This document shows, piece after piece, positions 1 to 63,332 of a stretch of DNA of 64,000 nt; the stretch's first letter is position 1; each line of letters opens with the position of its first letter. Under the pieces are notes generated by a model that was not told where the DNA came from, did no database searches, and saw only the letters and a program-made list of their open reading frames with translations. The DNA is taken from NCBI GenBank assembly GCA_963798285.1, contig CAWCSR010000003.1, forward strand, positions 66,777 through 130,776. Reading direction: 5' to 3'. A program made the translations under genes and the position numbers. Source of the DNA: an uncultured Thermoleophilia bacterium (GTDB lineage Bacteria; Actinomycetota; Thermoleophilia; UBA2241).

Positions 1-47
1 CGGCACGGCTGGCCACAGTGGAGGACCGCTGACGCCCGCCTGACGTC

Positions 48-108
48 AGACTAACGCCTGAATCAAGCCGACCCGCGAAGCGGGTTCGGCTTGAATGAAT
101 TGTCAGGC
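48..108 (-). repeat. attC site A (short, ~61 bp, divergent sequence)
   Basis: AGACTAAC...TTGTCAGGC ends. Internal imperfect palindrome TGAATCAAGCCGACCCGC/GCGGGTTCGGCTTGAATGAAT. Lies directly 3' of cassette ORF 139-480. Confidence 0.55.
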
Positions 109-138
109 CGCACTTGCCGCGCCATTTCAGTGCTGCCG

Positions 139-480
139 TTAGGACTGCGGGTCGAACCCGAAGACGCGCAGTTCTTGGTCGCAGCGACAGGCCTTGGCGA
201 TGCGCGCCGCCCACGCGATGGCCTCATCGCGCGAAGGCAGTTCCAACACGGTGAAGCCGCCGTCGAGCGTGGGCGCCCAAGGATAGCCGCCCACTGCAAC
301 CGCGCCGTCAGCAGAGACGAGTATGGGCGGTACGTCTTCGTCGATTCCGCCGCCGAAGACGTAAACACCGGCGGCTTTCGCCTCATCAATCACAGCGTGT
401 GCGTCGCGGCCCACCGCTCCCCATTCGCCATCGGGCACAACCATCGCCGCGCTTGGAAAAGAGATCAGGTACTTGGCCAT
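139..480 (-). CDS. YCII/DGPF-family small protein (cassette ORF)
   Basis: 113-aa ORF. C-terminal GGFTVLELPSRDEAIAWAARIA...ELRVF resembles the YciI/DGPF family. Flanked by attC A and B. Confidence 0.6.
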   Translation of the reverse strand: MAKYLISFPSAAMVVPDGEWGAVGRDAHAVIDEAKAAGVYVFGGGIDEDVPPILVSADGAVAVGGYPWAPTLDGGFTVLELPSRDEAIAWAARIAKACRCDQELRVFGFDPQS

Positions 481-525
481 GGTGCTCCTTCTGGGAATTG
501 ATGGCGGTCGTGAAGCCCGTGTGCG

Positions 526-612
526 GCCTGACGCACCGCGGATGAGCTGCGAGAACCGCGGCCCCGTCTTGCCGCGACGCTTTGGCGAGCCAGCTTGATC
601 CGCTTGTCAGGC
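526..612 (-). repeat. attC site B
   Basis: GCCTGACGCACCGCGGATGAGCTGCGAG...GGCGAGCCAGCTTGATCCGCTTGTCAGGC. Same arm family as sites D, E, F, H and I. Confidence 0.7.
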
Positions 613-638
613 GCGTCTGCCGACATGCCAGATTCCTC

Positions 639-1121
639 CTAGAGCGAGAAGATGTGCACCGGGCCAAGCTCCCGCATGGGACCGGGTTGAACGTCGCCGA
701 GACCATAGTCGTCGACGATGTGCGTCCTGGCGTCGAAGGTCAGGGTCATCCACGTGCCCTTCACATCGCCGCCCGTCGGGCTGAAGGACTTGGTGTTGAC
801 GAACTGGCCTTTGAGCACCACACCGTAGACGCGATCGCTATCGGGCACTCCGCCGCCCATCAGTACGCGGACCGCATCGCTGCGCCGGCAGGTCGTCCAC
901 GTGACAAGCTCGGGGTGAGGATCACCGCACGACGTAGCTTGCTGCCGTACCGCATCCAACAGCCAGGCTGGCGGCTGAATGGAGTCTGGCTGTGGAGACG
1001 GGGACGCGGCGGAGACGGCCTCGGCGGAGACAGGGCTGCCGCAGCCAGCCGCGGTGAGGAGAAGTGCGAGAACGGACAGTGCGAGCAACCCTGCGACGGT
1101 TGACTTCAGGAGACGTGGCAT
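639..1121 (-). CDS. Lipoprotein of unknown function (cassette ORF)
   Basis: 160 aa. Signal peptide with lipobox LLTAAGC. Located between attC B and C. Confidence 0.6.
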   Translation of the reverse strand: MPRLLKSTVAGLLALSVLALLLTAAGCGSPVSAEAVSAASPSPQPDSIQPPAWLLDAVRQQATSCGDPHPELVTWTTCRRSDAVRVLMGGGVPDSDRVYGVVLKGQFVNTKSFSPTGGDVKGTWMTLTFDARTHIVDDYGLGDVQPGPMRELGPVHIFSL

Positions 1122-1222
1122 CTCGAACCTCCCTACTGCGGTGTTTCGTGCCGTGAGACGATTAGCGGGCTACCGGTGTTCGCTCTTGACGTCGCGCTCA
1201 CGAAGCGGCCACGACCTGCTGC

Positions 1223-1324
1223 GCCCAACGTTTAGTGCATCAGCTGCAATACGCCGCGGCGATACGCTTCAACCCGAGACTAACGCTGGAGCGGCGTATT
1301 GTCTGCCGGATGCGCGTGTTGGGC
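1223..1324 (-). repeat. attC site C (divergent, ~102 bp, overlaps the 3' end of the GrpB ORF)
   Basis: GCCCAAC at 1223-1229 and GTTGGGC at 1318-1324. Internal inverted repeat CAATACGCCGC/GCGGCGTATTG. Confidence 0.5.
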
Positions 1325-1891
1325 CCTCGCCTCCCGCTTCGCGATCGCGGTCTCGCGAGTGATGAAGGCGGTCTTTGCGAGCGTGTAGGCCTCACGATCA
1401 TACGGGTACTGAGCGGCTAGAGCGTGCTTGAGGGCCGCGTACTCTCCCGCGACGTTCGGCTGGCTGCGCAAGCGATCACGGAACAGCACACGATTCCACT
1501 GCGGTTCGTCATCCAGGAGGGCCACGTGAACATGGGAGATGCGCCTTCCCAACTGATCACGGCCGATAAACCAGGGGTACCGTGGGCCGTCGTCTCCGAA
1601 CGCCGGGCGCAGGAAGTAGTCGTAGCCGGCGGCCTCCATCCTAGGGGCAACGTCGTCTTCGACGAAGCCGAACTCGTCGACGCCGAGAAGGATGTCGATG
1701 ATGAGCTTGGCCACTAGGCCGGGGACGGCGGTGCTCCCTACGTGTTCGATCCTGCGAATCGAGCCTGACGGGAAGAAGGCCTCGAGCCGAGCGACCTCCG
1801 ACTCGTAGAGCGAGGACCACGACGGGTCGCAGTCGACGAGCTCGATGCGTTCCGCGAGCACGCGAGCAAGCTTGTCCTCGAAGCTCTCCAC
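1280..1891 (-). CDS. GrpB family protein (cassette ORF)
   Basis: 203 aa. IEHVGSTAVPGLVAKLIIDILLGV and YPWFIGRD...HVHV segments are typical of GrpB/UPF0157. Confidence 0.8.
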   Translation of the reverse strand: MESFEDKLARVLAERIELVDCDPSWSSLYESEVARLEAFFPSGSIRRIEHVGSTAVPGLVAKLIIDILLGVDEFGFVEDDVAPRMEAAGYDYFLRPAFGDDGPRYPWFIGRDQLGRRISHVHVALLDDEPQWNRVLFRDRLRSQPNVAGEYAALKHALAAQYPYDREAYTLAKTAFITRETAIAKREARAQHAHPADNTPLQR

Positions 1892-1906
1892 ACGCCTCCG
1901 TCGATG

Positions 1907-1996
1907 GGCCTAACGCACCGCGGATACGCTGCGAGCGCGCCGGCTTCTGATGACAACGTCGGCGCTGCGGCGAGCCAGCTTGATCCGCTTGTTGGG
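1907..1996 (-). repeat. attC site D
   Basis: GCCTAACGCACCGCGGATACGCTGCGAGCGC...GGCGAGCCAGCTTGATCCGCTTGTTGGGC. Confidence 0.75.
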
Positions 1997-2004
1997 CGAC
2001 CCGC

Positions 2005-2307
2005 TCACGTCGGCAGGTCGAGCAATCGTTCGCTGCGCCAGACGCGGACGACACGGACCCGGTCCTCGGCGAGGCGATAGACGATCCGGAAGGGCGGATG
2101 GATGATCTCGCGCAGTTGCACGAGCCCAAACTCGGGCACCATGCGGCCGCTCACCGGGAAGTCAGCGAGCTGCTCGATGTGCGCGACGACCTCGCGCAGC
2201 AGGCGCTCCCCCACCTCGGGGGCCTGTTGGCCGGCGTACCAGGCGCGAATCGCCTCGAGGTCCGCGACGGCGGAGGCGGCGAAGCTGATGCGCGCTCGGG
2301 CGGGCAC
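2005..2307 (-). CDS. Type II toxin, RelE/ParE family (cassette ORF)
   Basis: 100 aa. ...FPVSGRMVPEFG...REIIHPPFRIVYRL..DRVRVVRVWRSERL is a ParE/RelE-like pattern. Lies 2 nt downstream of the antitoxin gene. Confidence 0.8.
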   Translation of the reverse strand: MPARARISFAASAVADLEAIRAWYAGQQAPEVGERLLREVVAHIEQLADFPVSGRMVPEFGLVQLREIIHPPFRIVYRLAEDRVRVVRVWRSERLLDLPT

Positions 2308-2309
2308 GC

Positions 2310-2597
2310 TTACTCGAGGCCGAGCCGCTGCTTGACGTCGGCGAGGTCGAGCTCGCGCCCCGCCTCAAGGTCGACGATGCCCTCGACGACGGCGCGCAGG
2401 AAGGAACGCTCCTCGGCCTCGGCCTCGTACTCAGTGAGGGCCTGTACGACGGCGACGCCGCGACCGCGGCTGGTGAGGAGTACCGGCCGGTGGGTCTCGT
2501 CGACCTGGCGCACGACCCGACCGGGGTTGGCCTTGAGGTCGCTGAGCGGCACGACGTCCTCCGAGAACTTGGGTGCGCTGCGCAAGGGAACCTCCAC
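2310..2597 (-). CDS. Type II antitoxin, Phd/YefM family (cassette ORF)
   Basis: 95 aa. VPLSDLKANPGRVVRQVDETHRPVLLTSRGRGVAVVQALTEYE is a Phd/YefM-like N-terminus. Confidence 0.8.
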   Translation of the reverse strand: MEVPLRSAPKFSEDVVPLSDLKANPGRVVRQVDETHRPVLLTSRGRGVAVVQALTEYEAEAEERSFLRAVVEGIVDLEAGRELDLADVKQRLGLE

Positions 2598-2687
2598 CTG
2601 AAGCCAGTGAATAGTACCGACTATAGCACCACTTCACAGGACCGCGAAGAGGACCCTCCGACCACGCCGCCGCTGGAACGAGGGTTC

Positions 2688-2774
2688 GCCCAACGCACCG
2701 CGGATAAGCTGCGAGCGCTGCGGCTCCGAGGTTGCCGCGACGTTCGGCGCGCCAGCTTGATCCGCTTGTTGGGT
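2688..2774 (-). repeat. attC site E
   Basis: GCCCAACGCACCGCGGATAAGCTGCGAGCGC...GCGCGCCAGCTTGATCCGCTTGTTGGGT. Confidence 0.75.
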
Positions 2775-2798
2775 GTGTGCCTCACGACGCCGACGGTC

Positions 2799-3198
2799 AC
2801 GGCACCACGATGATGCGCCGCGCCGTGAGAGCAGCCCCAGGCCGATGAGCCGGGACGTGACGTCGCCGAGCCTGTGGTAGCTGAAGTTGCCGCGGTTGCG
2901 CTTGCTGGCGCGTCGATCGGTGGCTCCAGGGGTTCGTCGGCGCGAGCGGTCGACGTAGGGCTTGAGCAGGGCGTGAAAGCGGCGGTTCGTCGGGAAGCGG
3001 GGCCAGCGGTCACCGTGGTCGACGCGGTCGGACTGCAGGGCGATCTGCAGCGTGTGGACGTTCTCGAGCGGTCGGGCGGCCTTCGGCCCGAGGGACGGTT
3101 GACGCCCCGCGGAGAGCCTGCCACGCCGAGAGCGACCGCGCAGGTGCAGCGGCTACGGCGACTGCCAACGCAATACGTGCGACGTACTTCACGACCAC
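2799..3198 (-). pseudogene. Cassette ORF for a putative secreted protein; reading frame broken as assembled
   Basis: Signal-peptide-like start MVVKYVARIALAVAVAAAPA (GTG at 3198). A protein-like continuation (...RPLENVHTLQIALQSDRVDHGDRWPRFPTNRRFHALLKPYVDR...) lies in another frame. The 3' end is uncertain. Confidence 0.3.
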
Positions 3199-3221
3199 GT
3201 CCTCCGGTTGACCTGCACCAC

Positions 3222-3310
3222 GCCTAACGCACCGCGGATAAGCTGCGAGCGCGACGGCTCCCGTGAGGCCGCCGGCGCTGCGGCGAGCCAGCTTGATCCG
3301 CTTGTTGGGC
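3222..3310 (-). repeat. attC site F
   Basis: GCCTAACGCACCGCGGATAAGCTGCGAGCGC...GGCGAGCCAGCTTGATCCGCTTGTTGGGC. Confidence 0.75.
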
Positions 3311-3331
3311 AGCGCGCAACTTCGCCACTGC

Positions 3332-3742
3332 TCACGCGCCTCCCCGCGAACGCTCGGTCTCCTGCTCGGCCAGCGCCTGCGTCATCGCTTGCTCGAAGGA
3401 TGCCTGCTGCCGCCGGTCGGCCGAAGTCGTGCGACCGTCGAGCAGCATGGCGATGGCGAACACCGGCACGGCGACGAAGAGCAGCACACAGGCGACCAGC
3501 CAGCCCCAGCGACGCAGGCGTACGGCGAGGGCGATCGCGAGCACCCAGGCAATGAGCAGGAGCAATACGGTCAGCAGCGTGAGCCAGTTCGAGGAGAAGG
3601 CGCTGACGTCGCCGGTGTCGACCGCCATCCACTGGCGCGCGAACGTGACGGTCTCGCCGGCGAAGCCCAGAATCCAGAGGGCGAGCAGGAGCCAGAAGAC
3701 GGTGAGCTCTACGCCCGCGGCGCTTCGCTTGGAGTCGCTCAC
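3332..3742 (-). CDS. Integral membrane protein of unknown function (cassette ORF)
   Basis: 136 aa with about 4 hydrophobic helices (VFWLLLALWILGF, LLTVLLLLIAWVLAIALAV, LVACVLLFVAVPVFAIAMLL). Confidence 0.6.
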   Translation of the reverse strand: MSDSKRSAAGVELTVFWLLLALWILGFAGETVTFARQWMAVDTGDVSAFSSNWLTLLTVLLLLIAWVLAIALAVRLRRWGWLVACVLLFVAVPVFAIAMLLDGRTTSADRRQQASFEQAMTQALAEQETERSRGGA

Positions 3743-3785
3743 CGCTCACCTCCCCCGGGCAGTGGGACCGCACCGGCCTTCGCCT

Positions 3786-3873
3786 GCCCAACGCACCGCG
3801 CGTAACCTGTGAGCGGTCTGGCCAAAGTATCGAGGCCAGACCTGCTGCGATCAGGTTGACGCGCTTGTTAGCA
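3786..3873 (-). repeat. attC site G (same ends, different internal arms)
   Basis: GCCCAACGCACCGCGCGTAACCTGTGAGCGGTCTGGCC...GGCCAGACCTGCTGCGATCAGGTTGACGCGCTTGTTAGC, a clear imperfect palindrome. Confidence 0.65.
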
Positions 3874-4098
3874 CGGCCTTGCGGCTTCAGTGCAACGGCC
3901 ACGGCACCGGCGGTGCAGGAGGATCTCGGAGAGCGCGCTGCACATTGGCTGATGCTGGCGGCGGGCGCTGGGGAGCTCGCGCGCTCCGGCAAGGCCGACC
4001 TGGCCATGCTCTTCCGAGGAGAGATGCGCTGCTGGCTACGCTGCAACTCACTTACTCAAAGCCCCCAGAGGGTGTTGCGGTTCCGCCACGTCTGCCCG

Positions 4099-4185
4099 CG
4101 CTAACGCACCGCGGATAAGCTGCGAGCGCCGCGGCTCCATCTTGCCGCGTCGCTTTGGCGAGCCAGCTTGATCCGCTTGTTAGCC
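4099..4185 (-). repeat. attC site H
   Basis: CGCTAACGCACCGCGGATAAGCTGCGAGCGC...GGCGAGCCAGCTTGATCCGCTTGTTAGCC. Confidence 0.75.
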
Positions 4186-4228
4186 CGTCGACCGAACAAC
4201 CCTCGGACTGCATGCTCGCAAGCGACGG

Positions 4229-4696
4229 TCATGGCGAGTTTGGGCTGTAGACGCTCACAGTGTAGCGGCCGATTCCGCGCAGTTCGAGGCAGTAGGTGCC
4301 TGCGAGCACATCCTTGGTGGTACGGAACTCGGTGATTACGGACTGGCCGTCCTCGCTGGGGACGCCTCGACTCGTGCTCGCGCCTGCTTGGTTGCGAGCG
4401 GCGGCGGGTGCGAGCGGGACGAGCTCGAGGCCGAGAGATACTTGCTCCCCGATGGGAGTCTCCTGAACGAGGCGGACGCGGACCGGCCCTGCGGGGAGCC
4501 GGAACCGCTGGCCCCGCACCCAGGCCTCGGGATCCAAGGAGCCCGCACCGCTCCATACGGACGCCCAGCCGCTCTGGGAGGGAGAGGGTGAGGCCGGCTG
4601 CGTGGGCTCACCGCATGCCGATACGCCGACGACCAGTGCGGCGAGGGCAACCATGATGAGGACGAGTCTCAACAACGCTCCATCGACCGGGCTCAA
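4229..4696 (-). CDS. Lipoprotein of unknown function (cassette ORF)
   Basis: 155-aa ORF. A likely internal TTG start near 4675 gives MLRLVLIMVALAALVVGVSAC (lipobox). Confidence 0.6.
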   Translation of the reverse strand: MSPVDGALLRLVLIMVALAALVVGVSACGEPTQPASPSPSQSGWASVWSGAGSLDPEAWVRGQRFRLPAGPVRVRLVQETPIGEQVSLGLELVPLAPAAARNQAGASTSRGVPSEDGQSVITEFRTTKDVLAGTYCLELRGIGRYTVSVYSPNSP

Positions 4697-4780
4697 CGCA
4701 CCGCGGATAAGCTGCGAGCGCGCCGGCCGCTCGTGAGGCCGCCGGCGCCGCGGCGAGCCAGCTTGATCCGCTTGTTAGAG
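4691..4780 (-). repeat. attC site I
   Basis: GCTCAACGCACCGCGGATAAGCTGCGAGCGC...GGCGAGCCAGCTTGATCCGCTTGTTAGAG. Confidence 0.75.
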
Positions 4781-4787
4781 CCCAGGC

Positions 4788-5255
4788 TCACCCCGCGTGG
4801 CCCCTCTTCGAGCGCGTCGCCTGCCGCAGCGCGAGCGCCGCGGCGCAGAGCAGGGGCGCAGCCGCGACGATCCAGGCCACAAGGGGCGCGTACGCGTGGC
4901 CGAGAGTCAGGCCGCCGGGATTGGAGAACGACAGCGCGTAGTAGTCGTGGAGGCGCTCGACAAAGAACGGCAACTGCGCGGCTGCGGCAAGGCCCGCTGC
5001 CAGAAGGCAGAGCAGCGAGGCCGAGCGCGGGGCCGAGCGCACAAGCAGAGCGGCGCCGGCCGCGAGAAGGGCGCCGATGGTGAGGAGGGCCTCCGTCCTC
5101 AGCGGCGAGGAGCTGGGGTCGCCGAAGCCGAAGAGGAGAGCAGCGAGCACGGCCTCGCCAAGCAGCACGCCGCCGCCGACCAGCGCCAGGAGCGCCGCCG
5201 GGTCACGGCGGACGGTGACCCCTGGTGCCACGCCTGTCTGTGCCCCTGCGCTCAC
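4788..5255 (-). CDS. Integral membrane protein of unknown function (first cassette next to attI)
   Basis: 155 aa with about 4 TM segments. GTG start preceded by GGAGGTCGGAG, about 16 nt after the putative attI crossover. Confidence 0.6.
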   Translation of the reverse strand: MSAGAQTGVAPGVTVRRDPAALLALVGGGVLLGEAVLAALLFGFGDPSSSPLRTEALLTIGALLAAGAALLVRSAPRSASLLCLLAAGLAAAAQLPFFVERLHDYYALSFSNPGGLTLGHAYAPLVAWIVAAAPLLCAAALALRQATRSKRGHAG

Positions 5256-5491
5256 CTCCGACCTCCTGTGGCTCTAACTCGTATTCTGCAGTCTGGGGAA
5301 GCCCCGGATGCAGCTCCTCACTTCTGGATGAGACCTTACCATGAGGGTCGGATTGCGGGATGTGCAGTCTGCGTATGCCGGGGGGCGCTCACTCAGCTGC
5401 CTTCGGTCGTTGCTCGAACTGCTCGGCGATCCACATCTTGATGACCCACGGGCGCGTGACGCCCAGACGCCGAGCTTCACGCGTGCAAGTC
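5256..5491 (-). other. attI-like region between the intI stop and the first cassette; candidate crossover GTTAGAG (minus strand) at 5272-5278
   Basis: Non-coding gap. It contains a GTTRRRY core (plus strand GCTCTAAC at 5271-5278) exactly where the first cassette should begin. IntI-binding repeats were not identified. Confidence 0.4.
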
Positions 5492-6458
5492 TCACAGTGT
5501 GTCCAGCGGGCTGCGCACGCCTTGGCCGCCGCGCTGGAGGACGTGGGTGTAGATCATCGTGGTGCCCACATCCTTGTGGCCCAGGAGCTCCTGGATGGTG
5601 CGGATGTCGTAGCCGCTCTCCAGCAGATGCGTCGCGAAGGAGTGTCTCAGCGTGTGGCAGGTCGCATGCTTCGTGATGCCGGCCTTCGCGACGGCGTCTT
5701 TCACGGCACGCTGCACGATGCTCGGGTGCACATGGTGGCGGCCCTGGCGGCCTGTGCGGGCGTCCGTCCAGCGGCGCTGCTGTGGGAACAGCCACTGCCA
5801 GCGCCACTCGCGGGGGGCGCGCGGGTATTTGCGCTCGAGCGAGTCGGGCAGCGCGACCGCGCCCCAACCGTCGCGCGAGGTCGCGCTCGTGGATGAGCTT
5901 CGCGCGGCGCAGCTGATCGCGGAGGTCGGGCACGAGCGCCTGCGGAAGCGTGGTGGCGCGGTCCTTGCCGCCCTTGCCGGAGCGGACGGTGAGCTCGCCT
6001 CGGGCGAGGTCCAGGTCGAGCACGCGGAGGCGCAGGCACTCGTTCAGCCGCAAGCCTGCGCCGTAGAGGAGCGAAGCGATCAGCCAGCTCTGAGGGTCGT
6101 TGCGGTCGAGCTCTTGCAGGACGGCGCGCACCTCTTCTCTGCTCAGGACCACGGGCAGCCGGGCGGGCTTGCGCGCGCGCACCAGCTCGTGGAGCTCGCC
6201 GATGTCGCGGTGCAGGACGCGGCGGTAGAGGAAGAGGAGTGCGCTGAGCGCCTGGGTCTGCGTCGAGGCGCTGACGTGTTCTACAACCGCCAGATGGGTC
6301 ACGAAGGCGTTGATCTCAGGCTCCGCCATATCCGCTGGGTGGCGGAGCCCATGGAAGCGGATGTACCGCCGCACCCAGCGGCAGTAGGTCTGCTCGGTGC
6401 GGCGGCTGTAGTGGCGCGCCCGCAGGGCGCGCTGCAACTGGTCGATGAGTTCGGACAC
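5492..6458 (-). pseudogene. intI: Integron integrase IntI, interrupted by one frameshift near 5870 as assembled
   Basis: N-terminal part (frame of ORF 5274-6653): VSELIDQLQRALRARHYSRRTEQTYCRWVRRYIRFHG...[14 protein letters not shown]...GKGGKDR. After a 1-nt shift: [29 protein letters not shown] (IntI-specific domain)...[12 protein letters not shown]...[14 protein letters not shown]. Probable GTG start at 6458. Confidence 0.85.
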
Positions 6459-6734
6459 GGCCCCAGCGTGGCCGCGTCGGGGCCGAGGTTCAATGGGTGA
6501 CGGGCAAACGTCAACGCGCCGGCCTCCGATGGCGGTAGGAAGGCACTGCTTGGCGGGGCAAAGGCGAAGAGCCAGGCACGTGGGGTTGGCCCGGCAGTCG
6601 CGCCCCCCGTTCGCGCGGCCGGCCGCCGCGCTCGCGCGCCGCGAATCACCCACTCAGGGTGAGGCGTCGCGAGGTCCCAGCCCCTACGTTGTGAGAGGAA
6701 CGCGGGGCCGGCACGACGGCGAGAGGAGAGATCC

Positions 6735-7112
6735 ATGGACCGGAGACTCGTGATCACGACTTCGTACCTCGCTCTGGTGCTGCTGGTGCTCACCGTGGCG
6801 GGACTGTACGACCCGGCTGGGGCGCCGGCCTCCGGTGGTGCGACGCAGCGGCCGCAACCGGCGCCGGGCCAGATGGCCGAGCAGCCGCAGGCGCCCTCGG
6901 CCCTCCCCGCCGGCGGCGCGGTGGCCATGGGGCCTCTGGCGCCGGGCGGCATGAGCGGCGAGTTCGCCCAGCGGCTGTTCGCGAGCGCCGGCGCCACCAG
7001 GGCGCCGTCGATCTACGTCCCGGCGGACTCGTGGCGAGGCCGGCACGGCTTCCGCTGGGGCCACCACGACTTCGGCATCCACGCCAGGGCGACGGCGACG
7101 TTCTCCTGCTGA
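6735..7112 (+). CDS. Small membrane-anchored hypothetical protein (Pro/Ala-rich)
   Basis: 125 aa. Strong RBS GAGAGGAGAG before the ATG. One N-terminal TM helix (YLALVLLVLTVAGLY). Confidence 0.5.
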   Translation: MDRRLVITTSYLALVLLVLTVAGLYDPAGAPASGGATQRPQPAPGQMAEQPQAPSALPAGGAVAMGPLAPGGMSGEFAQRLFASAGATRAPSIYVPADSWRGRHGFRWGHHDFGIHARATATFSC

Positions 7113-7128
7113 CCGCCCGGTCGCCGAG

Positions 7129-8504
<1,376 letters not shown>

Positions 8505-8515
<11 letters not shown>

Positions 8516-8861
8516 CGCGGCCTCCCTTCGTCGCGCCGGGGGCGCCGCCGGACGCCGTGGCGCCGGCGCCCTTCTTCTGGTCGCCCGAGCTCTTGAACAT
8601 CTCGAGCATCCGTTCGGTGACGGCGTAGCCGCCGACCGCGTTGGCGGCGCCGAGCAGCACGGCGAGGAAGCCGACGATGCGCTCCGGCGTCGTCGTCGCC
8701 GACCCGAGCGCGATCATGGCGCCCACGACGACGATGCCGTGCACGAAGTTGGAGCCGCTCATCAGGGGCGTGTGCAGGATGACCGGCACGCGGGAGATGA
8801 CCTCGTAGCCGACGAAGGCGGCGAGGATGAAGATGTAGACCGCCGCGAAGCCGGTGATCAT
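8505..8861 (-). CDS. pntAB: NAD(P) transhydrogenase subunit alpha part 2 (membrane)
   Basis: 118 aa. VPVILHTPLMSGSNFVHGIVVVGA...AANAVGGYAVTERMLEMF. Confidence 0.9.
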
Positions 8862-10114
8862 GACGCGCCTCCATCCGGCTCGGCCGCGTCGTGCGGCGGC
8901 ACGTTCTCGTCCGGCGTGCCCTCGGTGTCGGCCTCCCGGCTCGCCTGGTCGGGGGCCGGCTCGGCCGGCGCCTGCGGCGCCGGCGCATCCGGCCCTTCTA
9001 TCCGCTCGCGCACGCCCTTGTTCACGATGGCGCCGTCGCGGGTGAGGACGCTGCCGGCCAGGACTTCGTCGTCCCAGTCGAGCTGCAGTTCGCCGTCCTT
9101 GAGGAACGGTGTGAGGAAGTGCATCAGGTTGCGCGAGTACTGGTCGCTCGCGTGCACCGGCAGCATGCCGGGGATGTTGAGCGGCCCGTAGATGAACACA
9201 CCGTTGGGGTGGTTGTACTGCTCGCCGGGCCGGGTGAGCTCGCAGTTGCCGCCGCCCTCGGCGGCCATGTCGATGATCACGGCGCCGGACTTCATCTTGT
9301 CGACCACGTCGGCCGTGATGAGCTTCGGCGACGGCCGGCCCGGGATGGCGGCCGTCGTGATCACCGCGTCCGCGTCCACGATGTGGCCGTCGACGATCTC
9401 CTTGGCCTTGGCCTTCTCCTCGTCGGTGAGCTCGCGTGCGTAGCCGCCCTCGACCTCGGCGTCGATGCCGGTGTCGATGAAGCGGGCGCCCAGCGACTGC
9501 ACCTGCTCCTTGGTCACCGAGCGCACGTCGTAGGCCTCGACCACGGCGCCGAGGCGCCGGGCGGTGGCGATGGCCTGCAGGCCCGCGACGCCGACGCCGA
9601 GCACGACGACCTTGGCCGGCCGGAGCGTCCCCGCCGGCGTCGTCAACATCGGGTAGTACCGGCCGGCCATGCAGGCGCTCATCAGCACCGCCTTGTAGCC
9701 GGCGATGGACGCCTGGCTCGTCAGCGCGTCCATTGATTGCGCCCTCGAGATGCGCGGCAGCAGTTCGAGGGCGAAGCTGGTGATCTTGTGGTCGCGCATC
9801 GCCTTGATAGCGTCGTCCGCCTTGTACGGCTGCAGGAGGCCGAGGACGACGGCGCCTTCGTGCATCTGGTCGACCTCCGCCGGCGACGGCGGGTCGACCT
9901 TGAGGATGACATCGGCAGAGAGGACGTCGGCGGCCTCGTCGACCAGCGTGGCGGCTGTGAACTCCTCGTCGCGGATGTGACTCAGCTGGCCGGCGCTGCG
10001 CTGCACCAGCACCTCGGCGCCCAGCGCCGCGTACTTCTCGGCCACGGCTGGGACCACGGCCACGCGAGTCTCACCCGTCGCCGTCTCCCGGGCCACGCCA
10101 ATGCGGACTGCCAT
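8858..10114 (-). CDS. pntAA: NAD(P) transhydrogenase subunit alpha part 1
   Basis: MAVRIGVARETATGETRVAVVP..., VVVLGVGVAGLQAIATARRLGA (Rossmann). ATG at 10114 preceded by GAGGAGGG. Confidence 0.9.
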   Translation of the reverse strand: MAVRIGVARETATGETRVAVVPAVAEKYAALGAEVLVQRSAGQLSHIRDEEFTAATLVDEAADVLSADVILKVDPPSPAEVDQMHEGAVVLGLLQPYKADDAIKAMRDHKITSFALELLPRISRAQSMDALTSQASIAGYKAVLMSACMAGRYYPMLTTPAGTLRPAKVVVLGVGVAGLQAIATARRLGAVVEAYDVRSVTKEQVQSLGARFIDTGIDAEVEGGYARELTDEEKAKAKEIVDGHIVDADAVITTAAIPGRPSPKLITADVVDKMKSGAVIIDMAAEGGGNCELTRPGEQYNHPNGVFIYGPLNIPGMLPVHASDQYSRNLMHFLTPFLKDGELQLDWDDEVLAGSVLTRDGAIVNKGVRERIEGPDAPAPQAPAEPAPDQASREADTEGTPDENVPPHDAAEPDGGAS

Positions 10115-10276
10115 CGAACCCTCCTCGTGCGTCGGGCCCGGTCGCGGGCCCGACAGGTCACTTCCCACGCGCAGGGGACGAAAAACCTCGGAGACGTAGT
10201 GGAAACGGATGGCGCCCGGCGGCGCAGTGGACTCGAACGCGGAGGACGGCGTCAGGCGGGCATGCGGCGGGCGGCG

Positions 10277-12076
10277 TCAGACGGGCATGCGGCGCACCGC
10301 CGCGGTCACACAGCCGAGACCGACGTGCGTGGTGAGCACGGCGCCGGCGCGCACGACGGGCACGTCGCCGCCGAGACGCTCGCTGAGGCGGGCGGCGACG
10401 AAGTCCGCGCCCGCCTGGTCGCCGCTGTGCACGACCATCGCCCGGGCCGGCGCGCCGTCCGCGTAGCGCACGACGCGCTTCACGATGGCGTTGAGGGCGT
10501 GGTCGAAGCCGAGCGACACGCCCGCCCTACCGGCCTTGCCGGTCTCGTCGAGGGCGATGATCGGCGCGAGGTGCAGACGGTCCATGGACTTCGCGAGCCG
10601 CGGGCTCACACGCCCGCCGCGCACGGCGAAGTCGAGCGACTTGACCGCGCCGAACACCCTGATCTCGCGCTTGACTCTCTCGGCGATGTGCTCGACCTCG
10701 TCCAGGTCGGCGCCGGGACTGATGGCCTCGCCGACCGCCTCCACGAGCAGGCCGGCGCCGGCCGACACGGAGCAGGAGTCGATGACCCGGATGCGCCCCG
10801 GATCGACTTCCCGCGCCGCGGCTCTGGCGGCCTGCACGGTGCCGGAGAGCGCTCCGGCGATGTGCACCGAGACGACGCCGTCCCGGCACTCAAGGAGCCG
10901 GCGATACGTCTGGACCAGGTCGGCGACCGCCGGCTGCGACGAGCGCGGCGTCCCCGAGCCGGCGAGGATCCGCTGGATGAAGCCGTCCAGCGTGATGTCC
11001 ACGCCGTCGAGGTACTCCTCGTCACCCAGGGTCAGCGTCAGCGGCACCGCCATGATGCCGAGGCCGATGGCCTCGTCCTCGGGGAGGTCGGTCGTCGAGT
11101 CGGTCACGAGCCCGATGGCCGTCGTGCGACAGGCGAGCTGCTGCAGCACCATGTCGTCCACCTTGGTGCGTTCGATGTGGCCGACCTCAGCCACCGTGGC
11201 GAAGAACCGCTTCGGCTCGTTGGTGTGGATGTGCACGCGCAGGCGCGTCTCGCCGCCGGCCACCACGAGCGACTCGCCGAGCTCGGTGACACGGGTCATG
11301 ACGTCCTCGCGGGAGAGTGGCACGCCGCCCCGCTGCGTGAGCAGCGCCTCGGTGCAGAAGCGGAAACGGTCGTCGATCTCGTCGTGCTCGCCGGAGAAGG
11401 GCGGCAGGCCGTGCGCCGACGCCTCGATGGGTACCCAGGCCGGCTCGTTGCCGGTGAGCGAGTCGATCAGGCCCTCGAGGAAGAACACGAACCCCTGCCC
11501 GCCGGCATCCACCACGCGGCTGCGGGCGAGGACCTCCAACTGGCGCGGCGTGGCGGCGAGCGCCTCCCGCGCCGCCACGAGCCCACTGTGCAGCAGTTCG
11601 GGCAGGTCCTCCTCCTGAGCGCGCCGGCTGAGCTCGTGCGACCAGGCGTGCAGCACGGAGAGGATCGTGCCCTCCCGCGGCTCCTGCAGGGCGGAGTAGG
11701 CGGACTCGGTGCCGCGCACGGCCGCGGCCGCGAACTGCGCCCCGTCGGCCTGTCTCAGGCGCTCCATCGACGAGGCGAGCCCGTGGAGGAACTGGGCGAA
11801 GATCGCCCCCGAGTTGCCACGGGCTCCATCCAGGGCGCCGTCTGCGGCGACGCGCGCGGCGTCGCCCACGGAGTCGGGAGCCGTGCTCCCGAGCCTGGAC
11901 GCCGCCGCCTTGAGCGTCGCCGCCAGGTTGGCGCCCGTGTCCGCGTCACGCACCGGAAAGACGTTGATGCGGTTCAGCGTCTCCTGCTCGCGCACCACCG
12001 CGAGCGCTCCCGCGCGCACGGCGCGCGAGAACACCGCTCCGCTGAGTCTGGTGGAGTCGTCGATCGTTTTGGCCAT
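10277..12076 (-). CDS. DAK2 (DhaL-like) domain fused to a DegV fatty-acid-binding domain
   Basis: 599 aa. N-terminal DADTGANL...GARGNSGAIF (DAK2). C-terminal IGLVTDSTTDLPED...SSQPAVADL...HIAGALSGTVQAA (DegV). Confidence 0.8.
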   Translation of the reverse strand: MAKTIDDSTRLSGAVFSRAVRAGALAVVREQETLNRINVFPVRDADTGANLAATLKAAASRLGSTAPDSVGDAARVAADGALDGARGNSGAIFAQFLHGLASSMERLRQADGAQFAAAAVRGTESAYSALQEPREGTILSVLHAWSHELSRRAQEEDLPELLHSGLVAAREALAATPRQLEVLARSRVVDAGGQGFVFFLEGLIDSLTGNEPAWVPIEASAHGLPPFSGEHDEIDDRFRFCTEALLTQRGGVPLSREDVMTRVTELGESLVVAGGETRLRVHIHTNEPKRFFATVAEVGHIERTKVDDMVLQQLACRTTAIGLVTDSTTDLPEDEAIGLGIMAVPLTLTLGDEEYLDGVDITLDGFIQRILAGSGTPRSSQPAVADLVQTYRRLLECRDGVVSVHIAGALSGTVQAARAAAREVDPGRIRVIDSCSVSAGAGLLVEAVGEAISPGADLDEVEHIAERVKREIRVFGAVKSLDFAVRGGRVSPRLAKSMDRLHLAPIIALDETGKAGRAGVSLGFDHALNAIVKRVVRYADGAPARAMVVHSGDQAGADFVAARLSERLGGDVPVVRAGAVLTTHVGLGCVTAAVRRMPV

Positions 12077-12158
12077 CTCACTGGATTTCTACCCCGGCGC
12101 AATCACCCCCGCGCCACGCGGAGGCGCAGACGGCCTCACCCGGCGCCTGGCAGCGCCC

Positions 12159-12665
12159 TCACTTGGCGCCGGGCAGCGCCCCCATCTGCTTGAGCGACTT
12201 GCGCGCCGCGGCGGAGACAGTGGTGTCCGCGTCGCCGAGCGCGCGGCGCAAGGTGTCGAGCCCCCTCGGATCGCCGATCTTGCCGAGCGCCTCGACGCTG
12301 AGCATGCGCAGCAGCGGGTCCGGGTTGTGCATCGCCGTGCAGAGCGGCTCCACCGCGAGCGGGTCCTTCATCACGCCGAGCACGAAGGCGGCGTCCTGGC
12401 GCCGGTGCAGGTGGCCTTCCTTGAGGATGAAGATGAGCCGGTCACGCGCCGCCGGACCGATGAGCACCAGCGCCTCGCGCGACGTCTGGAGCTGCACGAT
12501 GTTCTTGGTCTGGAGGTTTTCGACGATGACGTCCAGCTTGGCCTCCAGGGCCTTGCGTGCCTCCTCGGCGATCGCCGGGTCCTTGTACTTGGCCGCCTTC
12601 ACGAGGCGGTCGATGCTGCCGGAGGCCTTGATCTTGGCGACGTTGGGCGGGCCGAACAGGGCCAC
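12159..12665 (-). CDS. HEAT-repeat protein
   Basis: 168 aa. Repeated ...DPLLRMLSVEALGKIGDPRGLDTLRRALGDAD... HEAT/PBS-lyase-like repeats. Confidence 0.6.
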   Translation of the reverse strand: MALFGPPNVAKIKASGSIDRLVKAAKYKDPAIAEEARKALEAKLDVIVENLQTKNIVQLQTSREALVLIGPAARDRLIFILKEGHLHRRQDAAFVLGVMKDPLAVEPLCTAMHNPDPLLRMLSVEALGKIGDPRGLDTLRRALGDADTTVSAAARKSLKQMGALPGAK

Positions 12666-12913
12666 GGCTCACTCCTCGGGGTCGGATGGGCGCCCCCGCG
12701 GCGCCCGAGGGGCCAGTCTACCCCACAGACGTCCCGAAGGCCGCCGGCCCGCGTGATGCCGGCCTCCCCGGAGAGTGCAGGGTGTCCGCACCCTGTGTCT
12801 TGGTATCTTCGAAGCTACCAGGCACGAGTCACGGGGCCGCATGATGCCCCCCCGGGAGCGGAGTGCACGGCGTGCGCGCATAGGGCCTCCGAGCGTCCTC
12901 TGCGCCCCGCAGC

Positions 12914-13839
12914 CTAGCGCAGGATGCGGTTGGTGACGTCGAGGAGGCGCGCCGGGAGGTCGTGGTAGGTGCGCACCGGAAATACGTCGCCGCGGCCGGC
13001 GTCGGCCAGCTCGCGGCAGAGCTCCGGGTTCATCTTGTAGTCCTCGGTCAGGAGCACGACGAGGTGCGGGAACCGGTGCGCCAGCGGCCGCGGGTCTCCG
13101 CCGGCCGTGACCACGCCGTCGGTGATCAGGAGGCCGCTGCGGCGAGGGTTGCGGCCGCGCTCCAGCTCGGCTGCGCCGAGCGCCAGCCCGGCCTCGATAT
13201 TGGTGTAGCCGCGCACCGGCTGGTCGAGCATGCGCCGGACCACTTCCGCCGGCGGGTCCGGCACGTCGAGGTGCGTCACCGCATTCGCCTTGTCCTCGAA
13301 GACGACCACGGAGAGGTCCTCGGGGTGCAGCTTGAGGGCGAGGACCGCTGCAGCCACGGCGGCGATGGCCATGTTCTCGCCGCTCATGCTGAGCGAGGTG
13401 TCGAGCATGAGCACCACCTGGTGCCGGCGGTCGACCCGCCGCCGGGCGATCCAGTCGGCCGGTTCCGGGAAGGGCTTGCCGAGCACGTTGTCGAGCGTCG
13501 CCTCGACGTCCAGCTCGCCGGCCCACGGCTCGCGCAGCGGCTCGCGCACCGTATGCGTGGCCGACTGCAGCGGGCCCACCAGGCGGGCGGCGCGCTGAAG
13601 CACGGCCCGCGCCGCCAGCCGCTCGGCGTAGAAGCGCAGGCCGGCGTCGGTGATGCGGCAGTCGCTGCGCGTGAGGTTCACGGCGATCGTCCAGCCGTCC
13701 AGATCCTCCTGGCCCACGCGATAACGGGTAGCGAGGGCCGCCAGCGGCGCGTCTCCGGCCGGCGGCTCCGGGGCGCACGACGGCAGGCCGCGGACCTCTA
13801 CGCGGCCTTGATGGCGGAGCGGAGCCCCGCCGATGGAGG
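12914..13839 (-). CDS. VWA-domain protein (MIDAS DTSLSMSG), partner or C-terminal half of the upstream MoxR ATPase; start unresolved
   Basis: Frame of ORF 12914-14599 from ...SLTSIGGAPL onward. Strongly similar to residues ~300-602 of the fused paralog at 15385-17193. No ATG before the VWA core. Confidence 0.7.
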
Positions 13840-14748
13840 TCAGACTTTTGGGGACTCCGGAGGGGCGAGGGCGACGTCGGGGTCCTCGCCACGCTCGACG
13901 ACCAGCTCCAGGAGCTCGTCGAGCGCCGTCCCGAAGTCGGCGTCGATGTCGTCCCGCAGGTCGACGCGTGTGGTCAGTGCGGCTTCGGCCGCGCGGCGCA
14001 GCACCTCGCGGCTCACCGCCCCGCAGGCGTCGCGGTCGTCGGCCCACAGCCGCTCGGCGATCGCCACCGTGGCGATGGCGCCGCGCACCGACGCGCCCTT
14101 GCGAAAGCGCGGGTGCAGCCGCGTCGCCCGCGTGAGCCGCACGGCCGTGCGCACGAGCTCGGTGTCGTCCGAGCCGGTCTCCGCGACCACGATCGCCGCT
14201 TCCTCGTCGGCTCCCTGGTACAGCAGCGCGAGGTGCTCGAAGCGGTCGCGCAGCGCCTCGGAGAGGTGGCCGGTGGCGACGTACTCCACCGGGTTCTGCG
14301 TCGCCACGACCTGGAAACCCTCGGCCGCGCGCACCTCGCCGATGTGCGGCAGCTGCAGCAGTCGCTCGTCCAGCGCCGGCAGGAGTACGTTCTGCACGCT
14401 CTCGGGCATGCGGTTCAGCTCGTTGATGAACAGCACCTTGCCGTCGCGCATCGCTTCGACCAGCGGTCCGGCGAAGAACGCCTCTTCCCCGTACCCCTGC
14501 TTGAGCACGATCGGCGGGTCGAACCAGCCGGTGAGCTTGCTCTCGGAGTAGCGGTCGTCGCCGTCCACGCGCACCGTGTCGCGGCCGAGGTGGCCGCACA
14601 CGGCGAGGGCGACGGTCGTCTTGCCCACGCCCACCGGTCCTTCGAGCAGCAGGTGACGGCCGGCGCCGAGCACGGCCAGGGCGGTAGCCAGTTCGCGCTC
14701 GCGGCCGACGATGCCGTGCTCGCGCTGGATCTTCTCGATGGGAGTCAA
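13840..14748 (-). CDS. MoxR-like AAA+ ATPase
   Basis: 302 aa. Walker A GPVGVGKT, Walker B VLFINELNR, ATQNPVEY..LSEALRDRF. Confidence 0.85.
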   Translation of the reverse strand: MTPIEKIQREHGIVGRERELATALAVLGAGRHLLLEGPVGVGKTTVALAVCGHLGRDTVRVDGDDRYSESKLTGWFDPPIVLKQGYGEEAFFAGPLVEAMRDGKVLFINELNRMPESVQNVLLPALDERLLQLPHIGEVRAAEGFQVVATQNPVEYVATGHLSEALRDRFEHLALLYQGADEEAAIVVAETGSDDTELVRTAVRLTRATRLHPRFRKGASVRGAIATVAIAERLWADDRDACGAVSREVLRRAAEAALTTRVDLRDDIDADFGTALDELLELVVERGEDPDVALAPPESPKV

Positions 14749-14809
14749 GAGCCGGACCTCCGTCCGCTTGTGTCGACGGCCGTCGCCGTCACTTCACGAG
14801 ATGCGACGC

Positions 14810-15352
14810 TCACTCGACGAGGAGGAGCGCGTAGCGATGATACGGCTCGCCCTCCGCCGCCACCACTCGCAGCGGCCAGCCTGCGTTGGCGCTGGTGGTG
14901 AACACGTCGATGCCGCAGCCGGCGAGCCCGGGGCGCAGGCGCTCGCGGCTGGCGCATGCTTCGGGCGAGCCACACGCCGCATCCAGGTCGCACGAGCGGC
15001 CGCCGGCGATGGCGAACGCCTTGTGGTGACCGGCGAGAAAGAGCTCCTGCTCCAGGCGCAGGGCCGTCCGCAGGACCCACGAAGCCGACTTGAGCCACTC
15101 GGAGCGCTCAGGGTGGACGTCGAAGCGCAGGAGAAGCGCGACCTCATACTCGTCGAGAAGCCGGCGCGTCTCGTCGGGCGCCGGAGAATGTGGCGGGCAG
15201 GTCAGGCAGCGGCCCGCCACGTCGCACCCGTACAGGCACTTCCAGCGCACCCACTCCGCGGTGACGACCTGGTCCGGATGCAGGACGGCGGCGGCGCTGG
15301 CGCCGGCCGCCAGCGCCCGGGCCGTCAGGTCGTCGGCGAGTTCGTTGTCCAC
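14810..15352 (-). CDS. DUF2284-like predicted metal-binding protein
   Basis: 180 aa from GTG 15352 (GGAG upstream). KCLYGCDVAGRCLTCPPH plus a second Cys cluster CDLDAACGSPEAC...GCG. Confidence 0.6.
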   Translation of the reverse strand: MDNELADDLTARALAAGASAAAVLHPDQVVTAEWVRWKCLYGCDVAGRCLTCPPHSPAPDETRRLLDEYEVALLLRFDVHPERSEWLKSASWVLRTALRLEQELFLAGHHKAFAIAGGRSCDLDAACGSPEACASRERLRPGLAGCGIDVFTTSANAGWPLRVVAAEGEPYHRYALLLVE

Positions 15353-15384
15353 GCGGCTCCTCTCACTGGTCGGCGCACATGCTC

Positions 15385-17193
15385 TCATCGCAGCACGCGG
15401 TCTGCGACCTCGAGCATGCGGCGCGGGAGCGCCGGGAAGCCGTCGACGCGCACGAGCCCGCCGTCGGCGGCGCGGGCGATGGCCTCGCCGACGTGCAGGC
15501 GCGGCGCGATCCACGTCGTGACCGGCGCGCCGGGGTCGAGGGCCGCCGGCTGCTCCTCCATGAGGAGCACGTGCAGCGGCCCGAACCGCGCCGCCGCCGG
15601 CAGCGGGTCGGCGCCGCTCGTGTGCACGCCGTCGGTCACGAGCAGGCCGCTGCGGCCGGGGTCGCGGCCGCGCTGCAGTTCGGCGTGGCCGGCTCGCAGC
15701 GCGGCCGCGATGTCGGTGCCGCCGCCGCACCGGAAGGCGAGCATGCGCCACACCAGCTCGGCCGGCGCGACCTCTTCGCCGAACCGCGAGATCACGCGGG
15801 CGTCGTCGGCGAACAGGACGACCGCGAGGTCGCCCGGCCGAAGCTTGAGCGCGAGCACGGCCGCGGCCACCGCGGCGAGCGCCATCTTCTCCCCGGCCAT
15901 GCTGAGCGACGTGTCGACCATGAGCACCACCTGGTGCCGGCGGTCGACGCGGCGCTGCACGATCAGGTCGCCCGGCTCCGGGTGCGGCTTGCCGAGCAGG
16001 TTCTCGAGGGTCGCCTCCACGTCCATCTCGCCGCCCCACGGCTCCAGCATCGGCTCGCGGGCCGTGCGCGTGGCCGCCTTGAGCGGGCCGACGAGGCGGG
16101 CGGCGCGCTGCAGCACGGCCCCGGACGCGAGCTGCTGCGCGCACAGGTAGGCGCGCTCGCCGGCATAGTCCAGCGCTCCTGCGCTCAGGTCGCCGGCGAG
16201 CTGCCAGCCGTCGAGGTCCTCGGGCGCCGCGCGCAGGTGCTGCGCCAGCGCGCGGCGGTCGTCCAGCGTGCACGCGGGCGGCTCTGCGGCGGCGGCTTTG
16301 CGCCGCTTCTGCTCGTCCTCCCGCGCGTCCCGCGAGCGCTCCGAGCCGCGGAGGCGGCTCGCGCCATCCGCGGCCGGCGCAGCAAGCGCCGCGAGCGCCG
16401 CCTCCGGGTCTTCCCCGCGCCCGGCCAGCTCGAGGAGCTCGTCGAGCACGGGCGCGAAGCCGGCCGCCGCATCCCGCAGTTCGACACGCGACGTCAAGGC
16501 GGCCGCCGCTGCGGCGCGCAGGTCCTCGCCGCCGGCCGCGAGCTCGACGATCGCCATCGCGCCGCGCACCGACGCCCCGCGGCGCACGCGCGGGTGCACC
16601 CGCGTCCCCCGCGCGAGCCGCACCGCCGTGCGCACGAGCGCGACGTCCTCGCACCCCGTCCCCGCCGCCACGATCGCTTCTTCCTCCGCGGCCGGCTGAT
16701 AGCCCAGCCCGAGGTGTTCGAACCGGTCGCGGATCGCCTCGGAGAGGTGGCCGGTGGCGACGTACTCGGCGGGGTTCTGCGTCGCCACCACCTGAAAGCC
16801 CTCCGCCGCACGCACCGGTCCGAGGTGCGGCACCTGCACGACGCCCTCGTCCAGAGCGGGCAGCAGCAGGTTCTGCGCGGCCTCCGGCAGCCGGTTCAGC
16901 TCGTTCAGGAAGAGGACACGGCCTTCTCGCATCGCCCGGAGCAGCGGCCCGGGGACGAATGCGTCCGCACGGTAGCCGAGCGCCAGGACCAGCGGGGGGT
17001 CGAACCAGCCGGCGAGCCTGCTCTCGGTGAAGCGGTCGTCGCCGTCGACCCGCACGGTGCTGCGTCCGAGCCTCCGGCAGACGGCCAGCGCCAGCGTGGT
17101 CTTGCCCGAGCCCACCGGGCCCTCAAGCAGCAGGTGCCGGCCGCCGGCGACCGCCGCGCACGCGGTGGCCATCTCCTGCTCGCGTCCGATCAT
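15385..17193 (-). CDS. Fused MoxR-like AAA+ ATPase / VWA-domain protein
   Basis: 602 aa single ORF. GPVGSGKT, VLFLNELNR, ATQNPAEY; then DTSLSMAG MIDAS. Paralog of 12914-14748. Confidence 0.85.
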   Translation of the reverse strand: MIGREQEMATACAAVAGGRHLLLEGPVGSGKTTLALAVCRRLGRSTVRVDGDDRFTESRLAGWFDPPLVLALGYRADAFVPGPLLRAMREGRVLFLNELNRLPEAAQNLLLPALDEGVVQVPHLGPVRAAEGFQVVATQNPAEYVATGHLSEAIRDRFEHLGLGYQPAAEEEAIVAAGTGCEDVALVRTAVRLARGTRVHPRVRRGASVRGAMAIVELAAGGEDLRAAAAAALTSRVELRDAAAGFAPVLDELLELAGRGEDPEAALAALAAPAADGASRLRGSERSRDAREDEQKRRKAAAAEPPACTLDDRRALAQHLRAAPEDLDGWQLAGDLSAGALDYAGERAYLCAQQLASGAVLQRAARLVGPLKAATRTAREPMLEPWGGEMDVEATLENLLGKPHPEPGDLIVQRRVDRRHQVVLMVDTSLSMAGEKMALAAVAAAVLALKLRPGDLAVVLFADDARVISRFGEEVAPAELVWRMLAFRCGGGTDIAAALRAGHAELQRGRDPGRSGLLVTDGVHTSGADPLPAAARFGPLHVLLMEEQPAALDPGAPVTTWIAPRLHVGEAIARAADGGLVRVDGFPALPRRMLEVADRVLR

Positions 17194-17274
17194 GACGCCG
17201 ACGGTAGCACGTCGGCTCGCCGGAAACCGGCGGCGAGGGATGAACCCGGACGGCCCGGACGGCCCGGACGGCCG

Positions 17275-19973: not shown

Positions 19974-20019
19974 GTCATCCCCTCCAAATAGACGCCAATG
20001 CCGGCAGCGCTGGTCGGGC

Positions 20020-63315: not shown

Positions 63316-63332
63316 CGAGCGCGTAACGTCTG

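Follow-up and report, generated by a model that had tools for sequence, protein, structure and literature searches.

Anatomy, cassette boundaries and host lineage of a chromosomal integron in Thermoleophilia

Can a complete integron belong to the chromosome of a GC-rich, Gram-positive-like bacterium? The IntegronFinder 2.0 survey found no complete integron in Actinobacteria and a single one in Firmicutes (PMC9024848), which bears out the impression of an earlier note that such elements are rare or unreported in these lineages. That note was written from the letters of a 64,000-nucleotide stretch of an uncultured Thermoleophilia genome, hereafter the window, and described at its left end a chromosomal integron with at least nine cassettes. 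The window is also the region analysed here, and the array leaves it at that end. The match of the integrase (IntI) to its family model, the structure and covariation of the attC recombination sites and a footprint left at the cassette boundaries all support the description. We are highly confident that the window holds the integrase-proximal end, with at least nine cassettes, of a genuine sedentary chromosomal integron of a soil-dwelling member of Thermoleophilia.

The integrase and its attC sites

After a one-nucleotide frame repair, the product of intI matches TIGR02249, the NCBIfam model of integron integrases (cutoff 265 bits), with 470 bits and over positions 1-315/315. Its scores with the XerC and XerD models, 149 and 140 bits, stay below the equivalog cutoffs of 335 and 330 bits, and with 365 bits it also falls short of the class 1 IntI1 model NF011946 (cutoff 435 bits). 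The protein aligns end to end and without gaps to the crystallised VchIntIA (2A3V; 311 bits). This alignment includes the IntI-specific additional domain near patch III, LP.AL..KYP.AP.E.RW..LFP...RHH, in which W, LFP and RHH are conserved. The catalytic R, K, HxxR, H and Y are all present. The earlier note had recognised a recombinase with this extra domain and these residues next to the array, and the motif it quoted is found in a second minus-strand reading frame.

Neighbour-joining groups the actinobacterial IntIs in a single clade with an internal identity of 66-92%. Its sister group is made up of sequences from Syntrophales/Smithella, Spirochaetales and Marinimicrobia, and both IntI1 and VchIntIA fall outside the clade.

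The attC sites were located with R1, a covariance model built from seven family sites on the plus strand of the window, and with regular-expression scans. All nine palindromes of the form RYYYAAC...GTTRRRY that had been listed before are present (Table 1), although the one placed at 1907-1996 had to be moved by one nucleotide, to 1908-1997. Their arms had been called uniform, which holds for seven of the nine: by repeat finding and alignment these form one family with 83% mean column identity, whereas the sites at 1223-1324 and 49-108 are divergent. R1 scores the seven family sites at 82-109 bits on the plus strand and at most 17 bits on the minus strand, so the sites are asymmetric. It also recovers the site at 1223-1324, absent from its training set, with 27 bits (E 1.6e-4). 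The short site at 49-108 was missed by the R1 scan of the window and was confirmed by BLAST against plasmids instead. No Rfam family matched the repeats.

Folded as single-stranded DNA, the family members have a 7-bp R box in common, followed by an unpaired and asymmetric spacer (5 nt on the 5' arm, 2 nt on the 3' arm), an L box of 12-13 bp with a single bulged G on its 3' arm (CAGCTT[G]ATCCGC) and a variable terminal stem-loop. The note had suggested looking for extrahelical bases on the folded bottom strands, and the bulged G lies on the bottom-strand 3' arm.

The same family extends over 27 related loci, 472 kb in total. R1 detects 234 sites in them, every one downstream of intI and all (234/234) on the strand opposite to the intI coding strand; the upstream flanks hold none. 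Structure statistics were collected on 150 attC sites from these relatives. The L helix is 97.8% paired, against 27-45% in slid controls, with compensatory changes in 8 of the 13 pairs (e.g. GC:88 / CG:53). None of 500 shuffles came up to the observed values, and the AAC/GTT triplet is invariant among the 150 sites. In structure and covariation the sites are what attC sites should be.

The divergent site at 49-108 leads outside the lineage: over 69 nt it shares 87% identity (E 1e-14) with the attC that belongs to the aadB/ant(2'')-Ia cassette in class 1 integrons and is present in 3,699 plasmid records. The two align without gaps and in the same orientation with respect to the gene, and compensatory changes are seen in the inner stem. 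One site of this type is present in the window, and among the related loci only L010 has it. R1, trained on Thermoleophilia sites only and hence untrained on class 1 attCs, ranks the aadB and aac(6')-33 attCs first when run on a 1.5-kb class 1 array of a Klebsiella plasmid, with both on the bottom strand.

Hairpins are plentiful in high-GC genomes, and a terminator-like one at 63330-63380 scores weakly with R1. One may ask, then, if the repeats are ordinary intergenic palindromes, like repetitive extragenic palindromes (REP), miniature inverted-repeat transposable elements (MITE) or terminators, standing beside an Xer-type recombinase. However, the XerC and XerD scores are far below that of the IntI model, and the repeats are confined to one strand and to the region 3' of intI. 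Such palindromes would also leave unexplained the invariant AAC/GTT, the circular-cassette footprint described below and the homology to the aadB attC. On these grounds we rejected REP-like repeats with an Xer recombinase, a reading to which we assign practically no probability.

Another hairpin, at 62631-62705 on the plus strand (GCCTGACGC...GCGTCAGGC), adjoins a minus-strand cupin open reading frame (ORF; 62259-62603). Its first 15 nt are identical to the 5' arm of attC8, and it scores 22 bits with R1 (E 0.003). The GC content dips locally to 0.658 here, and the array is 56 kb away; the hairpin may be a lone or degenerate attC.

Cassette boundaries, attI and orientation

Cutting at AA|C leaves the final six bases of R' with the next cassette, and the poor pairing of the outer four R-box pairs in situ among the 150 attCs is as integron biology predicts. 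We compared 150 consecutive attC pairs in this respect. For the outer four bases of R''(k), the mean match is 3.61 of 4 with the R' remainder of attC(k-1), the site upstream (75% perfect), against 2.43 of 4 with the in-situ partner (13% perfect) and 2.33 +/- 0.07 of 4 with random partners. The upstream partner is the better one in 111 pairs and the worse one in 12 (111/123 informative, p = 3e-21). This matching is the footprint of IntI-type excision and insertion with cutting at AA|C. Cassette 1 of the window, correspondingly, starts with TTAGAG, the exact complement of its own R'' (CTCTAAC).

Individual cassettes are found at differing positions in related arrays. The Phd/ParE toxin-antitoxin (TA) cassette (PF02604 56.7 bits, PF05016 67 bits) occupies the sixth place of the array in the window and the first place, at attI, in L002/L003 (90.5% identity), and the homology begins at the G|TT crossover in both. 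Cassette 9, encoding a YCII-like protein, is 97% identical in L010, where it lies about 9 kb into the array; cassette 2 has an 86% identical counterpart in L048. By their footprint and by these differing positions, the cassettes are discrete units bounded at G|TT. Searches with PADLOC and NCBIfam models gave no defence or resistance assignment to any of the nine, in keeping with the note's remark that none is an obvious resistance gene.

Both intI and all cassette ORFs lie on the minus strand, with the array 3' of intI. The layout is thus not the classical divergent one but that of an 'inverted integrase', a known integron arrangement (PMC13323075) that IntegronFinder also recognises.

The region between the integrase gene and the first cassette is conserved in about 24 related loci and holds, in this order, a box CTTACGCAGAC, the motif TGGTAnnnT about 35 nt beyond it, a second box TTACGCAGAAG, an imperfect inverted repeat and then CTGCAGAAnnnnA|GTTRRRY, with which it always ends. 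In the window the crossover falls at G(5278)|TT(5277-5276), and nucleotide homology with L004 ends at 5276. Conserved next to intI and ending in GTTRRRY at the first cassette, the region has the properties of an attI site, with putative IntI binding. Its TTAYGCAG box resembles DR2 of attI1, GTTACGCAGCAG, as read from a Klebsiella plasmid.

A TGnTAnnnT element, which we take to be a form of the actinobacterial extended -10, is kept at the same position in about 20 of the 24 attI regions. It is our candidate for the cassette promoter Pc. Upstream of intI no LexA/SOS box was seen on inspection by eye.

Several relatives carry a full brnT-brnA-like pair between the intI stop and attI (L005, 10956-11526; also L060, L010, L048 and L026); the L005 toxin matches BrnT (PF04365, 71.5 bits). 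The window and L004 retain only the last ~30 codons of the antitoxin, and the translation of this remnant in the window matches the C-terminus of the L005 antitoxin. It is unusual for a TA module to lie within the platform of an integron and not in one of its cassettes.

Table 1. Integron features in the window, from the integrase towards the left end. For attC sites, limits run from the R' 7-mer to the R'' 7-mer on the plus strand.
Feature	Limits	Strand	Description
intI	5492..6458	-	GTG start at 6458, stop 5492-5494
BrnA-like RHH antitoxin remnant	5389..5481	-	last ~30 codons, translation REARRLGVTRPWVIKMWIAEQFEQRPKAAE*
attI region	5278..5377	-	three TTAYGCAG-like boxes: 5363-5377, 5321-5331, 5283-5296
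Candidate Pc	5333..5341	-	extended -10 element TGGTAAGGT (TGnTAnnnT), 55 nt upstream of crossover
Cassette 1	4697..5277	-	membrane protein ORF 4788-5255, no family match
attC1	4691-4780	+	
Cassette 2	4105..4696	-	predicted lipoprotein/secreted protein ORF 4229-4696
attC2	4099-4185	+	
Cassette 3	3792..4104	-	313 bp, no convincing ORF on either strand
attC3	3786-3873	+	compensatory changes in L box
Cassette 4	3228..3791	-	membrane protein ORF 3332-3742
attC4	3222-3310	+	
Cassette 5	2694..3227	-	signal-peptide (secreted) protein ORF 2790-3198, split over two frames
attC5	2688-2774	+	
Cassette 6	1914..2693	-	Phd/YefM antitoxin 2310-2597 and ParE toxin 2005-2307
attC6	1908-1997	+	
Cassette 7	1229..1913	-	GrpB-family protein ORF 1280-1891, PF04229 141 bits
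attC7	1223-1324	+	divergent, 102 nt
Cassette 8	532..1228	-	predicted lipoprotein ORF 639-1121
attC8	526-612	+	non-canonical GAC/GTC triplets
Cassette 9	55..531	-	YCII-like protein ORF 139-480, weak PF03795 match
attC9	49-108	+	divergent, 60-nt aadB-type site
Cassette 10 start	1..54	-	follows G|TT of attC9; array leaves window

The YCII-like protein (139-480) has a relative in another phylum. It is 91% identical (85% at the nucleotide level) to L074 5999-6340, on the Gemmatirosa kalamazoonensis plasmid NZ_CP007129, a Gemmatimonadota megaplasmid. The homology is confined to the ORF, and attC is absent there. This suggests either inter-phylum transfer or the recruitment of an ordinary gene into a cassette; the homologue does not stand in a cassette context and so is no evidence of an integron at the Gemmatirosa locus.

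Host lineage, chromosomal locus and alternatives

The flanking DNA identifies the host. Positions 6600-19300 are collinear with contigs of Thermoleophilia metagenome-assembled genomes (MAGs), up to 447 kb long, at 82-94% nucleotide identity. This synteny with Actinomycetota agrees with the high-GC, Gram-positive-like host that had been proposed from the flanking genes. One of those genes fared less well: the supposed 'Dlt-like' operon has at 28793-30037 a gene with only an MBOAT-family match, which reaches 164 bits with the DltB model against a cutoff of 375.

About 25 MAGs from several projects, taken from a collection of species-representative genomes and named Thermoleophilia, Actinomycetota or Actinomycetes, carry an IntI of 70-92% identity together with the attC family of the window. 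One of the less closely related IntIs (71%) is found on a contig of 2.1 Mb. The genes pntAA-pntAB-pntB stand directly upstream of intI in 17 of the 27 loci; in L008 and L056, an insertion of 8.5-9 kb separates pntB from intI. Next to intI in the window there is neither a transposase nor a relaxase or Tn402-like gene, and the GC content of the array (65-70%) is near that of the genome (70%). A shared locus, a homogeneous attC family and the lack of adjoining mobility genes are what is expected of a sedentary integron; L026, L032 and the distant loci are exceptions.

The spacer between pntB and intI is kept at the nucleotide level in L019, L010, L048, L011 and L005. In the window a small plus-strand ORF (6735-7112, 125 aa, signal-peptide-like, no Pfam match) lies between the two genes.

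A number of observations weigh against a sedentary, complete and working integron. The intI gene reads through in two frames, with a one-nucleotide insertion at 5873-5877 relative to the four relatives that align there; if the frameshift is real, this copy would be unable to recombine alone. The note's statement that every attC lies 3' of a small minus-strand ORF stands for seven cassettes and fails for two, cassette 3 having no ORF and cassette 5 a frameshifted one. Both R boxes of attC8 have GAC/GTC where AAC/GTT is otherwise invariant; in attC9 the R'' (102-108) is likewise of the GAC/GTC type. A scan of positions 1-7000 for sigma-70 consensus promoters gave no match, so the case for Pc is one of conservation. 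The IntI tree was computed without support values, and the relatives compared are MAGs throughout. Other chromosomal genes stand upstream of intI in L026 and L032; because these two and the more distant relatives lie off the pntB locus, the integron is not strictly immobile. Finally, L006 (a 4.7-kb contig) and L039 carry delta-proteobacterial labels with an IntI identity of at least 88%.

Some of these irregularities have details of their own. The sole long ORF of cassette 3 overlaps both attCs, and the cassette may be a non-coding or promoter cassette. The change in the attC9 R'' matches TCAGGC at the start of cassette 9, so the triplet change is compensated across both ends of this cassette.

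Taken together, the inserted nucleotide, the two irregular cassettes and the GAC/GTC triplets of attC8 and attC9 could mean that the frameshift is real and the integron dead, an inactive relic with a frozen, decaying array. However, housekeeping genes are broken in the same window. The lepA gene (53750-55646) falls into two parts, GTP_EFTU and EFG_C/LepA_C, pntB (7132-8515) is split at profile position ~175, and phoH (~45.4 kb) is truncated or frameshifted. The nearest relatives come from long-read MAG projects and show similar split genes. Since housekeeping genes and long-read relatives are split alike, sequencing indels are the simpler explanation. Because lepA, pntB and phoH are frameshifted too, the insertion in intI is probably an assembly artefact. 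Pseudogene calls in the window are generally unsafe, as its split conserved genes point to an indel-prone (long-read) assembly.

The wider family speaks against a relic as well. A protein search returned thousands of IntI relatives, and nearly all of the best 120 clusters, which are 72-90% identical, are intact at 318-337 aa (more than 100 clusters). The attCs, too, are well preserved. A dead integron is in our judgement unlikely, although, given the frameshift, this particular intI copy is at most putatively active.

Could the integron instead have arrived recently, on a transposon, a plasmid or an integrative and conjugative element? No transposase, relaxase or Tn402-like gene adjoins it. 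The same pntB-intI junction is seen in 17 loci, and the divergence of the flanks tracks that of IntI; the attC family is homogeneous and the actinobacterial IntI clade monophyletic at the identities given above. Mobility would be favoured by the one attC of class 1 type, the different chromosomal site in L026 and L032, and the Syntrophales origin of the nearest outgroup IntIs. Weighing both sides, we hold a recently acquired mobile integron to be very improbable.

The two records with delta-proteobacterial labels raise one more question, namely whether a proteobacterial integron was joined to actinobacterial DNA by chimeric assembly or mis-binning. Yet the pntB junction recurs in independent assemblies from several projects and platforms (ENA, JGI, MFD, SMAG), some of the contigs that bear it are hundreds of kb long, and the GC content of the array is close to the genomic value. 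Mis-binning was rejected on this recurrence, and we consider a chimera extremely improbable. As for the two records themselves, L039 is CAWGJT010000006.1, 1-11062, at the end of a 968-kb contig; the IntIs of L006 and L039 are 88-90% identical and their attCs belong to the same family. Their labels could reflect mislabelling, a chimeric contig end or a real transfer.

Comparison with known integrons and significance

The sedentary chromosomal integron of Thermoleophilia that emerges has much in common with those of Vibrio cholerae (the superintegron, VchIntIA/VCR) and Xanthomonas (next to ilvD): the IntI additional domain, a chromosomal site conserved within the lineage, long arrays with one lineage-specific attC family, and cassettes mostly of unknown function or with TA modules, whose content varies between related genomes. 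It differs in its host, a member of Actinomycetota rather than of Proteobacteria, and in having intI co-oriented with the cassettes where theirs is divergent. Several of the relatives have a TA module between intI and attI, and the attC family is GC-rich and about 87-90 nt long.

In orientation it resembles the inverted-integrase integrons of the Treponema denticola type, with intI and cassettes on one strand and the array and attI 3' of intI. The phylum is a different one. The closest non-actinobacterial IntIs (Syntrophales/Smithella, Spirochaetales) cluster beside the clade of the window. One of them, in the Syntrophales locus L030 (IntI 62% identical; 11000-12200, 12404-20211), has an IS3-family transposase inserted right after intI and four 144-nt attC-like repeats 3' of it. 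These repeats suggest that the sister group may share the inverted layout.

With class 1 integrons (IntI1, attI1, aadB/aadA) the common ground is the recombination chemistry and the logic of the sites. attC9 is 87% identical to the aadB attC, and the attI boxes resemble DR2 of attI1, GTTACGCAG; the likeness of the two attI sites is limited to this short box. IntI1 lies outside the clade of the window in the neighbour-joining tree. In contrast to class 1 integrons, the present element has no Tn402 or 3'-CS context and no resistance cassettes, its intI has the opposite orientation, and it is sedentary.

A complete integron is also known from a single high-GC genome whose phylum otherwise has no integrons. 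The two cases have this rarity in common, but here about 25 species-level genomes share a locus.

In a literature search of incomplete coverage we found no description of Thermoleophilia integrons. The raw data are already public, since automatic annotation has given these proteins the name 'integron integrase'. By all the defining features that were tested, the element is an integron. What is new is the host lineage, the conservation throughout that lineage, the inverted layout, the attI/Pc region and the presence of brnTA between intI and attI.

We now propose how the integron may work. Single-strand cutting of attC, excision of circles and insertion at attI are established integron biology; from the sequence we infer current recombination, Pc function and cassette expression at this locus. 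IntI is encoded directly downstream of pntAA-pntAB-pntB, with its gene pointing towards the array. Past the intI stop come the brnTA relic, the extended -10 element as candidate Pc, and attI with its crossover at 5277/5278. At least nine presumably promoterless cassettes follow on the same strand, each closed by an attC. The bottom strand of attC (the plus strand of the window) is predicted to fold into the paired R box, the 5-versus-2-nt spacer, the L box with its bulged G and a variable loop. IntI would then cut RYYYAA|C between A and C. Recombination between two attCs would excise cassettes as circles, which may be inserted at attI, and the cassettes closest to Pc would be expressed.

A broader proposal is that a soil Thermoleophilia clade maintains an active and largely vertically inherited integron, which, through cassettes like the one with an aadB-type attC, shares its cassette pool with the mobile integrons of clinical Proteobacteria. 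We put this forward tentatively, as a possibility that falls somewhat short of an even chance. If true, Actinomycetota would have its first complete integron conserved across a lineage, and recombination of single-stranded attC would be shown to operate in a Gram-positive host of high GC.

The conserved integron of about 25 Thermoleophilia species shows the gap in Actinobacteria to be in part a sampling effect of cultured genomes. The lineage offers a natural system in which to ask what lets integrons persist in a Gram-positive host with 70% GC. It enlarges the known reservoir of soil cassettes, and its lineage-specific attC family could serve to assign metagenomic cassettes to their host. Finally, the aadB-type attC hints at cassette traffic between the Thermoleophilia reservoir and clinical integrons.

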